Shown: positions 35,536 through 36,358 of the stretch, one piece after another
Position numbering within the stretch: the stretch's first letter is position 1
How the letters are laid out: each line of letters starts with the position of its first letter
Virus record (IMG/VR): IMGVR_UViG_3300021077_000115
Span: 174,064 to 238,063 of that record
Origin: a virus
Strand: one strand, 5' to 3'
Length of the DNA stretch: 64,000 nucleotides
Notes under the pieces: generated by a model
What the model was told of the DNA's origin: nothing
The model's input: the letters and a program-made list of their open reading frames with translations, nothing else
Database searches by the model: none
Translations under genes and position numbers: made by a program

Positions 35536-35913
35536 TTGTTACAGGAGTTTAATATGGAAAATGAAATTAAGTTTGATGAAGAAACACGAAAGCTAATCAG
35601 GGCGTTCCGCGCTAAGGTTTCTGATGGACAATATGCCAGCAGAGCAACGCTATTAGCGTATTCTTTTCTTAAGCGGCGTCCTTATGTTGCATTAGAGAAG
35701 AAGATCAATGAGGATCATCCTAGCTTTGGGATTGGAAGAGATTCTTTCCTAAGCAATCTGGCATATGATATTGCACACGAGATTAATAATTTAGTATTAT
35801 CAGATACCAATGATGAATTGATTGCGCCGTCTGGTTTAAGAGATGACATTCAGCATTGGATTATGAAGAAGTACGAACCAGCCGCTGCTATTGCAGAAGA
35901 GAAAGCTGCATGA
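35536..35913 (+). CDS. hypothetical protein
   Basis: SD AGGAG; stop TGA overlaps the PTH2 ATG (ATGA). Confidence 0.45.
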   Translation: MLQEFNMENEIKFDEETRKLIRAFRAKVSDGQYASRATLLAYSFLKRRPYVALEKKINEDHPSFGIGRDSFLSNLAYDIAHEINNLVLSDTNDELIAPSGLRDDIQHWIMKKYEPAAAIAEEKAA

Positions 35914-36251
35914 CGTAGATTTCTGAAGGAGATAAACTTTACGTCATTACTAGGTCTGATCTTTCAAAGGGATATCAGGCAGTTCAATCTATTCATGCAC
36001 TTCGTTAGTTCGTGAATGATCATCCTGATATAGATAGGGAGTGGTATTCTAAATCAAACTATTTGGGACTTCTTTCTGTCAAGACCGAGAATGAGCTTTC
36101 TGAGTTGTTTAGAAAAGCTTGCCAATATGGCATTAGATGTTCAGTATTTAGAGAACCAGATATTGGTGATCAAATTACAGCCATCGCCTTGGAACCCGGC
36201 CCCATATCCAAAAGGCTTTGTTCCAAGTTACCATTGGCCTTGAAGGATTAA
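35910..36251 (+). CDS. PTH2-family peptidyl-tRNA hydrolase with two in-frame TAG codons (35916-35918 and 36006-36008)
   Basis: ATG 35910 in ATGA overlap with the upstream gene. M-T-TAG-ISEGDKLYVITRSDLSKGYQAVQSIHALR-TAG-FVNDHP...CSVFREPDIGDQITAIALEPGPISKRL aligns to PTH2 ([23 protein letters not shown]...IQDAGRTQIAPGS.TVLGIGPGP) on both sides of the second TAG. No SD or alternative start for the downstream piece. Confidence 0.6.
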
Positions 36252-36268
36252 CACTTACAGCTTACAAT

Positions 36269-36358
36269 GTGCCCGTCGCTCAGTGGTCGAGAGCAACAGA
36301 TTCTAAAACTGTCGCAGCCGAGAGGCTGCCATCGTGGGTTCGACCCCCACCGGGCACA
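36269..36358 (+). tRNA. amber suppressor tRNA (anticodon CTA), type II, A73
   Basis: GTGCCCG/CGGGCAC perfect acceptor, D GCTC AGTGGTCGA GAGC, anticodon stem ACAG/CTGT, loop TTCTAAA (U33, C34 U35 A36, A37), variable arm GCAGCC-GAGA-GGCTGC, T-arm GTGGG TTCGACC CCCAC; 18 nt downstream of PTH2. Confidence 0.7.

Follow-up and report, generated by a model that had tools for sequence, protein, structure and literature searches.

Gene arrangement at the locus

The window analysed here comprises 64,000 nucleotides (nt; positions 174,064 to 238,063) of the IMG/VR virus record IMGVR_UViG_3300021077_000115. Its plus strand carries a gene related to the peptidyl-tRNA hydrolase family PTH2, with two in-frame TAG codons and, directly downstream, a tRNA gene with the anticodon CUA. 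The PTH2-like gene (35910-36251) has 113 codons and a TAA terminator; it was characterised by translation, Pfam and profile matches, a structural model and a codon comparison. It reads ATG ACG TAG ATT ... CGT TAG TTC ... TAA. The translation runs MT, stop, ISEGDKLYVITRSDLSKGYQAVQSIHALR, stop, FVNDHP...ALKD, and both internal stops are TAG. TAG1 (35916-35918) is codon 3 and represents a conserved start-proximal amber codon. TAG2 (36006-36008) is codon 33 and lies within the PTH2 fold, directly 5' of the nearly invariant phenylalanine of the family. The start codon overlaps the TGA of an upstream open reading frame (ORF; 35536-35913, plus strand, 125 amino acids) in an ATGA, and translational coupling of the two genes through this overlap is probable. 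The upstream ORF has no family match and is not conserved next to PTH2-like genes elsewhere. The tRNA(CUA) gene (36269-36359, plus strand, 91 nt) begins after a spacer of 17 nt behind the TAA. Its anticodon is located at 36303-36305 and an extra arm at 36314-36329.

The locus is 100% identical in DNA sequence across the independent assemblies SRR13557794, SRR13557796, SRR35912072 and JGI 3300046484. The TAG codons are therefore not sequencing errors.

A sequence-only reading of this locus had described an ORF that is intact on both sides of TAG2, a codon-3 TAG behind an ATGA-coupled ATG, and a tRNA with anticodon CUA, the loop UUCUAAA and A73. These descriptions hold: the family match spans TAG2, translation and the overlap with the upstream ORF confirm the position of TAG1, and ARAGORN, Rfam and the predicted fold agree on the tRNA. 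The gap of 18 nt given between gene and tRNA is 17 nt. The view that neither piece of the gene has an independent start is correct for the interval between TAG1 and TAG2, which contains no ATG, GTG or TTG, and incorrect for the remainder, where a GTG at 36012, one codon past TAG2, opens an ORF of 79 amino acids. This fragment is the sole piece annotated by public gene callers. It would be without the invariant G-Q-Q-H portion of the fold: G18, Q20, Q23 and H26, which belong to the nine residues invariant across the family, are all encoded between TAG1 and TAG2. A hairpin pairing the ATG-ACG-TAG region with codons 9-13 is absent from the relative L006 and was taken as chance.

A divergent PTH2-fold protein

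Read with both TAGs as sense codons, residues 9-100 match Pfam PTH2 (PF01981; E=6.4e-07, 30 bits against a gathering cut-off of 23), and the match therefore crosses TAG2. Pth2 models also match 28-31 of 34 relatives (E<=0.01). A profile of these 34 relatives aligned over its full length with the Pth2 structure 2zv3 (E=1.5e-9) and likewise matched other archaeal Pth2 structures. The AlphaFold model of P0003, a homolog with 76% identity, has a predicted local distance difference test score (pLDDT) of 96.4. In a Foldseek search of the PDB with this model, the best 14 matches all belonged to the Pth2/Bit1 family, with template modelling (TM) scores of 0.61-0.77, the top ones 0.72-0.77, and probability 1.0.

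The phage family shares the fold of Pth2 (PF01981; PDB 2zv3, 3erj, 1wn2, 1xty and human Bit1 1q7s), passes the Pfam gathering score, and has kept the Q..HA motif and the acidic residue of the second motif. Differences concern the second motif, with EPD in place of DAG-T, and the catalytic lysine of the Pth2 G-K motif (Lys18 in the S. solfataricus enzyme). In the family profile, the lysine of G-K-G-K in 2zv3 aligns with a tyrosine (P-G-Y-Q). This tyrosine, Y22, is almost invariant in the close subfamily; some distant relatives have leucine or glutamine. Scores of 24-30 bits remain below the NCBIfam Pth2 equivalog cut-offs (TIGR00283, 29.8 bits against 82; NF003314, 23.7 bits against 126). The family was not found in a scan of 185,579 cellular genomes. 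The same phage encodes a separate, canonical PTH2 of 150 amino acids (PF01981, no in-frame stops) about 4 kb upstream of the window start (flank L063, 6137-6589). Jumbo phages were already known to carry PTH2 genes (Iyer et al. 2021, PMC7824862). The product of the interrupted gene can be classified from sequence and model as a divergent member of the PTH2 superfamily with a putative activity. It is presumably an ester hydrolase acting at the tRNA 3' end. The sequence-only reading had seen a gated hydrolase that recycles peptidyl-tRNA. The PTH2 fold stands, whereas the recycling role was assumed and the catalytic lysine is replaced.

Conservation of the start-proximal TAG

The nearest PTH2-like genes were found in 'uncultured phage' genomes of 460-735 kb (LR756500-504 and LR745206). 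No match was obtained when the phage collection was searched at the nucleotide level with 12 kb surrounding the locus. All four huge-phage relatives from this collection (L001-L004) begin with ATG-NNN(-NNN)-TAG-ATT. Among about 44 distinct IMG/VR loci, 12 have M-x(1-2)-TAG directly 5' of the conserved N-terminal strand. The flanks of these 12 loci have a G+C content of 23-56%, mostly 23-33%. M-x(1-3)-TAG is also present at L070-L073, L074-L076 and L078-L080. TAG1 is kept in relatives down to about 40% protein identity, and the in-frame stops among all homologs are exclusively TAG, never TAA or TGA. Shine-Dalgarno spacing in L002, L038, L006 and Xanthomonas phage XacN1 fits the ATG 5' of the TAG.

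A protein search yielded 309 relatives at E<=1e-10, and the N-termini of the best 120 cluster representatives were classified. In this set, 55 proteins start with M-x(0-3)-Q, 47 begin inside the 'KLYVITR' strand and 18 are full-length without an early glutamine. The DNA of eight proteins was inspected, five from the 'Q' group and three N-terminally shortened, and every one has a TAG at this position (ATG ACG TAG ATT, ATG AGT CTA TAG ATT and ATG TGT CTG TAG GTT are among the start forms). The early glutamine in database proteins thus originates from code-15 translation of TAG by gene callers; code-11 translation of the DNA differs. By this measure, the start-proximal feature would be present in about 85% of these 120 nearest representatives. 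Assignment of TAG to glutamine from the 'M-T-Q-I' of the closest database proteins was withdrawn, as these residues are TAG in the DNA. Proteins P0003-P0005, P0007, P0008, P0010-P0015 and others, on short contigs, show the TAG as Q. Code-11 pipelines shorten or fragment the genes, so that database entries conceal the stop and can mislead on the inserted residue.

The 18 members without the TAG have H, T, D, E, A, S, K, I or P at the TAG1 site. A stop kept at a site without residue preference, even at 23-33% G+C, argues for selection on the stop codon itself. From these comparisons, a TAG at codon 3-5 is a hallmark of a phage-only PTH2-like subfamily. Its cultured carriers include Tenacibaculum phage pT24, Cronobacter phage GAP32 and Yersinia phage fHe-Yen9-04.

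The history of TAG2 is different. Its site is GAG (Glu) in L073 (95% nucleotide identity), L070 and L072, and Q, E, D or L in other relatives. TAG2 is therefore a recent, lineage-specific change from GAG to TAG, and TAG1 is the conserved element. Further second TAGs have arisen independently in L034 and in L038/L002. Between the window and L073, 24 codon differences are synonymous and four non-synonymous, with a ratio of 7:0 between TAG1 and TAG2, which points to purifying selection on either side of the TAGs. This ratio, the absence of frameshifts and of TAA or TGA, the depth of TAG1 conservation and the identical sequence in four independent samples make it very improbable that the gene is a decaying pseudogene whose nonsense mutations lie by chance beside a suppressor tRNA, even though the recent origin of TAG2, a codon-usage score that is low for the genome (0.083) and the second, canonical PTH2 gene would all fit such decay.

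The codon past the TAG bears on another explanation. It is ATT in 11 of the 15 tabulated loci and in four more close relatives, ATG in L037 and GTT in L040 and L080. ATG-NNN-TAG could be a two-codon leader mini-ORF, with the protein made by re-initiation at the following ATT, GTT or ATG; the TAG would then tune initiation without any suppression. Very short ORFs terminate poorly and release peptidyl-tRNA, as known from the lambda bar minigenes and Pth, which would provide a thematic tie to a PTH2-like product. Re-initiation cannot, however, bypass the second TAG within the fold in the window, L034 and L038/L002. The codon past the TAG is not start-like in L034 (AAA) and L057 (ACG). Isoleucine or valine at this position is also kept in TAG-less homologs with an ATG further upstream, and is hence an internal residue. 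Where a stop-reading tRNA is present near a TAG-bearing gene, its anticodon is always CUA. We regard the leader explanation as improbable; in its favour, XacN1 and Xanthomonas phage Xoo-sp13 have an ATG 4-5 codons downstream of the TAG.

In actinophage homologs, start-TAG-start arrangements coincide with the annotated start (GTG TAG GTG, GTG TAG ATG and ATG TAG ATG in L005/L042 of Mycobacterium phage Myrna, L041 and L051), and a tRNA(CUA) is located 130-350 nt downstream. The Myrna 'GTG TAG GTG' was considered as the same gate and is best read as a TAG in the Shine-Dalgarno spacer of the annotated start.

The tRNA(CUA) and linked stop-reading tRNAs

The tRNA(CUA) matches the Rfam tRNA model with 53.4 bits (E=2e-9). 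Minimum free energy folding (z=-3.4) gives a cloverleaf whose extra arm has 6 bp and is closed by a GAGA loop. The features of a canonical amber suppressor are all present: anticodon CUA within the loop UUCUAAA, U33, a purine at position 37, G18G19 and the T-loop. The discriminator base is A73 and CCA is not encoded. An A31-A39 mismatch leaves an anticodon stem of 4 bp, and the extra arm measures 16 nt. ARAGORN labels any tRNA with a CUA anticodon as tRNA-Pyl. The architecture of tRNA-Pyl includes a small D-loop without G18G19 and a very short variable loop. The label does not fit the 9-nt D-loop with GG, the GTTCGA T-loop and the variable region of 21 nt.

Seven differences separate the tRNA from its L073 ortholog. 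All are in stems and all keep pairing, one by changing G:C to G:U, and three compensatory pairs fall into the acceptor stem, the anticodon stem and the extra arm. This pattern indicates structural constraint on the tRNA. The tRNAs 3' of the same gene in L070 and L072 are class I, with 72-75 nt, and align with the window tRNA apart from the 16-nt arm and 2-3 additional D-loop bases. The arm is confined to the window and L073, and the D-stem, with 4 bp, is that of a class-I tRNA. It follows that a class-I suppressor recently gained the long arm by insertion in this lineage. A Tyr or Leu identity had been deduced earlier from a type II body with A73; the tRNA has the long variable arm of class II, but its short orthologs and D-stem speak against descent from Leu, Ser or Tyr bodies. 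No convincing close paralog was found among the 49 other tRNAs of the window and the Leu, Ser and Tyr tRNAs of the relatives. Of the TAG sites themselves, TAG2 replaces Glu, the TAG of a second gene (below) is aligned with Ala, and the TAG1 site is unconstrained. The in-frame TAGs of two genes under selection suggest that the tRNA is charged and decodes UAG.

The tRNAs beside PTH2-like genes have common traits. Most have a GCUC/GAGC-type D-stem, A31 is unpaired in several, including the window tRNA, and two body types occur, with A73 and G73. A CUA tRNA is located within 3 kb in 12 of the 17 TAG-bearing loci with adequate flank. Among loci with any stop-reading tRNA, CUA is present at 8/8 TAG-bearing and 5/18 other loci (Fisher p=0.0016, uncorrected for relatedness). 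The pairing of TAG and CUA is extended by the further close relatives L070-L073 and L078. TAG-less loci have, within 3 kb, tRNAs with irregular 8-nt loops holding UUCA (opal-type), or with UUA (ochre-type). The acceptor stem of the opal-type tRNA of L024 is exactly that of the window tRNA.

UUCA loops were seen downstream of the TAG-less genes of L007, L008, L009, L013, L016, L017, L019, L021, L022, L024 and L027. These opal-type tRNAs are homologous to the amber suppressors and often form tandem pairs of A73 and G73 bodies. UUA occurs in L036 and Lak-B1; L020 has a 6-nt loop (GUUAUG), and L084 belongs to the same irregular set. ARAGORN called the irregular-loop relatives '???' or Glu.

TAG usage in the rest of the window

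The use of TAG was assessed over about 84 kb, consisting of the 64-kb window and about 20 kb of two flanks (L060 and L063). A second gene also needs TAG read-through. It is located on the minus strand (28049-28387), has 112 codons and a Shine-Dalgarno sequence AAGGTGA, and carries a TAG at codon 27 (28307-28309). It fills an otherwise empty gap of 357 nt between two minus-strand genes, and before as well as after the TAG it scores positively as coding sequence in one and the same frame. The homolog P0001 (115 residues, 67% identity, 100% coverage) is full-length and has alanine at the TAG site. A search of IMG/VR for relatives of this gene found none.

In-frame TAG together with a tRNA(CUA) is the signature of recoded phages (Borges et al. 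2021/2022, 10.1101/2021.08.26.457843), and genome-wide reassignment of TAG to glutamine, similar to code 15 in Lak, crAss-like and other gut phages, would make the tRNA a general decoder. The two TAG-bearing genes of the window fit this explanation, as does the choice of code 15 that gene callers made on several related, short contigs. In the recoded phages, it is mainly the late genes that contain recoded stops, and the window is without late genes. On the other hand, TAG terminates 17 of the 93 window ORFs, including Pfam-supported ones such as the NAD kinase directly downstream. Read-through extensions after TAG are not shorter than after TAA or TGA. TAG as sense gives no larger gain in coding coverage than TGA or TAA as sense, in the window and in the flanks of the relatives, and no excess of gap-filling ORFs (8, against 14 and 12 for the controls). 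Code-11 gene calls are dense in the flanks of the window. Many in-frame TAGs with TAG rarely terminating, as expected for code 15, were not found in window and flanks; two genes have a TAG. Reassignment also leaves unexplained why the TAG is fixed at codons 3-5, at a site without residue preference. We therefore consider reassignment unlikely, and gene-specific suppression fits these 84 kb better.

The sequence-only reading had proposed that TAG is decoded as sense for at least some genes, by recoding or by conditional suppression. Purifying selection, the conserved codon-3 TAG, the second gene and the constrained tRNA support sense decoding, and of the two modes it is conditional suppression that agrees with a TAG ending so many ORFs. 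The comparison of genetic codes that it had suggested showed no gain in coding coverage. Aminoacyl-tRNA synthetase or release factor genes did not appear in the Pfam-annotated parts of window and flanks.

Other gene starts of the form ATG-x-TAG were not found within the window. ATG-NNN-TAG(-AT) was considered as a repeated DNA motif of the genome and is not enriched in the window. Four gene pairs examined as TAG-joined genes (16877/17252, 62477/62222, 49717/50041 and 22743/23526) are separate; the downstream members begin with signal peptides or N-terminal catalytic motifs. A zinc-ribbon-like ORF (CPKC...CHDC; 54951-55106, minus strand) ends in TAG, in frame and one codon from the ORF 54726-54950 on the same strand. 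Suppression at this terminator would fuse both ORFs.

A partner protein and cultured phages

In several phages, a protein of about 190 residues with an invariant HDCGKP motif adjoins the PTH2-like gene (L078, L074, L080, L003 and L053). Partner genes are located at L078 158-736, L074 2418-3014, L003 2498-3052, L053 3969-4550 and L057 3313-3918. L057 and, as it appears, Tenacibaculum phage pT24 (L083) have the partner fused 3' of the PTH2-like domain. The partner is fused 5' of the domain in Stenotrophomonas phage RAS14 (L081), in Xoo-sp13 (L082) and in ORF364 of XacN1 (L085). Pfam has no match for the partner; its profile matched the body domain of the A-adding tRNA nucleotidyltransferase weakly (E=1e-4). 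The window encodes no partner homolog.

The partner genes also have an early TAG. All four stand-alone copies that were checked start with M-x(1-3)-TAG, and the fusion genes of RAS14, Xoo-sp13 and XacN1 have an in-frame Shine-Dalgarno-ATG-AAG(-AAG)-TAG upstream. XacN1 ORF364 (AP018399, about 243735-244595) is preceded in frame by AGAGGA, 8 nt and ATG AAG TAG ACC ATT AAA GCG ATG. This mini-ORF or N-terminal extension is a candidate target of the two tRNA(CUA) of XacN1. ORF295 of XacN1 was considered as a gated gene and is a canonical PTH2 without TAG. The PTH2-like genes start with MAQ-TAG in GAP32 (L086, about 290180-291030) and with MSH-TAG in fHe-Yen9-04 (L087), and the partner gene of both phages has a conserved internal TAG (ELD[TS]G-TAG-GD). 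The GenBank annotation of this region is broken into small ORFs in both genomes.

Orphan suppressor tRNAs are on record for XacN1 (two tRNA-CUA) and Atu_ph07 (tRNA-UCA), and the authors of the XacN1 report state that no targets were found. These are likewise jumbo phages with a large tRNA set and PTH genes. The reports were without target genes, whereas the present comparison points to a target class.

A proposed translational gate controlled by a suppressor tRNA

We consider it likely that the virus is a huge, tRNA-rich phage with the standard code for nearly all its genes, which encodes an amber suppressor tRNA and a few genes completed only when UAG is decoded. Translation of the PTH2-like gene, coupled to that of the upstream ORF, would begin at its ATG and reach the UAG of codon 3. 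If charged tRNA(CUA), the likely decoder of these TAGs, beats release factor 1, elongation would proceed, and in this lineage the tRNA would have to prevail a second time, at codon 33. Where release factor 1 prevails at codon 3, a dipeptide would be the sole product. The tRNA is probably co-transcribed with the gene and excised from the same transcript. Enzyme output, provided that the PTH2-like product is active as its fold suggests, would be tied to the suppressor activity of the phage, here roughly quadratically. The start-proximal UAG would act as a selected translational gate and not as a codon for a needed residue. The gate may match a tRNA-clearing enzyme to the extent of read-through in a feed-forward manner, exert negative feedback on the suppressor, or delay expression until the phage tRNAs are functional.

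Several observations weigh against this proposal. The 84 kb represent part of a genome of probably several hundred kb, and recoding might be widespread among its late or structural genes. TAG2 arose recently and, considered by itself, could be a new mutation that inactivates the gene. Re-initiation at the downstream ATG could suffice in XacN1 and Xoo-sp13, without suppression. Five TAG-bearing loci have no CUA tRNA inside 3 kb, and the Fisher test is weakened by the shared ancestry of the relatives. Many relatives keep the linkage of gene and tRNA with a gene that has no TAG, so gating is not the sole reason for the linkage. The exchange of the canonical catalytic lysine for tyrosine and the missed equivalog cut-offs make hydrolase activity uncertain. 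Read-through is deduced from sequence rather than experiment.

In other phages, the PTH2-fold protein travels or is fused with a second protein that would likewise be amber-gated. A wider proposal is possible, and we put it forward tentatively: an amber-gated tRNA-end module may be widespread in large phages, in which a start-proximal UAG, kept as a stop codon in its own right, senses suppressor function and controls a divergent PTH2-fold hydrolase and a partner similar to part of a CCA-adding enzyme. Such a module would explain why jumbo phages with the standard code, including XacN1, keep suppressor tRNAs, and its role may be that of a circuit for counter-defence or for homeostasis of the tRNA pool. 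The stop specificity of the module could switch, since the tRNAs of sister modules read opal or ochre codons. As a whole, the sequence comparisons support an amber gate that is conserved, specific to certain genes and part of a module confined to phages and connected with the tRNA 3' end. This gate is more general than the sequence-only reading had held; its purpose and the substrate of the enzyme we infer.

Relation to known systems

Stop-codon recoding with suppressor tRNAs has been described as a translational timer, with a 'code change module', in Lak, crAss-like, Jade and Garnet phages (Borges et al. 2021/2022). Common to these phages and the window are a phage tRNA(CUA), in-frame TAG in a standard-code setting and in-frame stops as a gate until the suppressor is active. 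In the window, by contrast, TAG stays a regular terminator and is in frame in 2 of about 95 genes of 64 kb. The proposed gate is one positionally conserved codon just past the start codon in a particular gene family. The genes behind it are related to tRNA and located beside a tRNA, whereas lysis or structural genes are gated in the recoded phages.

The predicted gate resembles the regulation of a bacterial translation factor. The autoregulation of prfB, encoding release factor 2, depends on a UGA at codon 26 and frameshifting by +1, and the stop is one at which its own product acts. In both systems, an early in-frame stop in a translation-factor gene would make codon competition a sensor of the capacities for sense decoding and termination. 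Here, the decoder is a separate tRNA and a frameshift is not needed. The literature on Pth2 or peptidyl-tRNA hydrolase with suppressor, amber or phage, as far as the incomplete coverage goes, reports no conserved in-frame amber codon or linkage to a suppressor tRNA.

Suppressor tRNAs are common in large phages with the standard code, with targets so far unknown, and the PTH2-like genes would represent a conserved target class. A stop two to four codons past the start can apparently be a selected element and a cheap gate, as failure costs a di- to tetrapeptide. The conserved TAG also exposes a systematic annotation error: code 11 shortens or fragments the genes, and callers aware of code 15 write a spurious glutamine. 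The arrangement may be an intermediate state between the standard code and full reassignment of TAG. The cultured phages pT24, XacN1, RAS14, Xoo-sp13, GAP32 and fHe-Yen9-04 make the hypothesis directly testable.

Further features of the window

Two short repeats precede the upstream ORF (35453-35486). The sequence ATGACGTAGGTTTCTAAA matches the start of the PTH2-like gene (35910-35927) at 16 of 18 positions. Two nucleotides further, TCATTGGTCGAGAG matches the D-arm of the tRNA(CUA) (36280-36293) at 13 of 14 positions. The pair may represent a decayed second copy of the gene-tRNA unit that has lost the gene body. On its 3' side, at 35501-35528, is a perfect 10-bp hairpin.

ARAGORN detected 50 tRNA genes in the window. 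They cover 19 amino acids, with none for serine. Odd lengths were observed for a Met tRNA (86 nt, 22456-22541), a Gly tRNA (82 nt, 48575-48656) and an Arg tRNA (79 nt, 18123-18201).

The PHROG protein matches of the window point to jumbo phages. A protein of 712 amino acids (31104-33242, plus strand) has major-vault-protein shoulder and repeat domains. An Acb1/2H-phosphoesterase-like protein is encoded at 182-787 (plus strand). The flanks encode a lactamase similar to the anti-Pycsar protein Apyc1 (L063, 1107-1985) and an eIF-1a/IF1-like protein (L060, 17409-17636). Judged by their predicted families, the vault-like, Acb1-like, Apyc1-like and IF1-like genes form an unusual accessory and counter-defence set.

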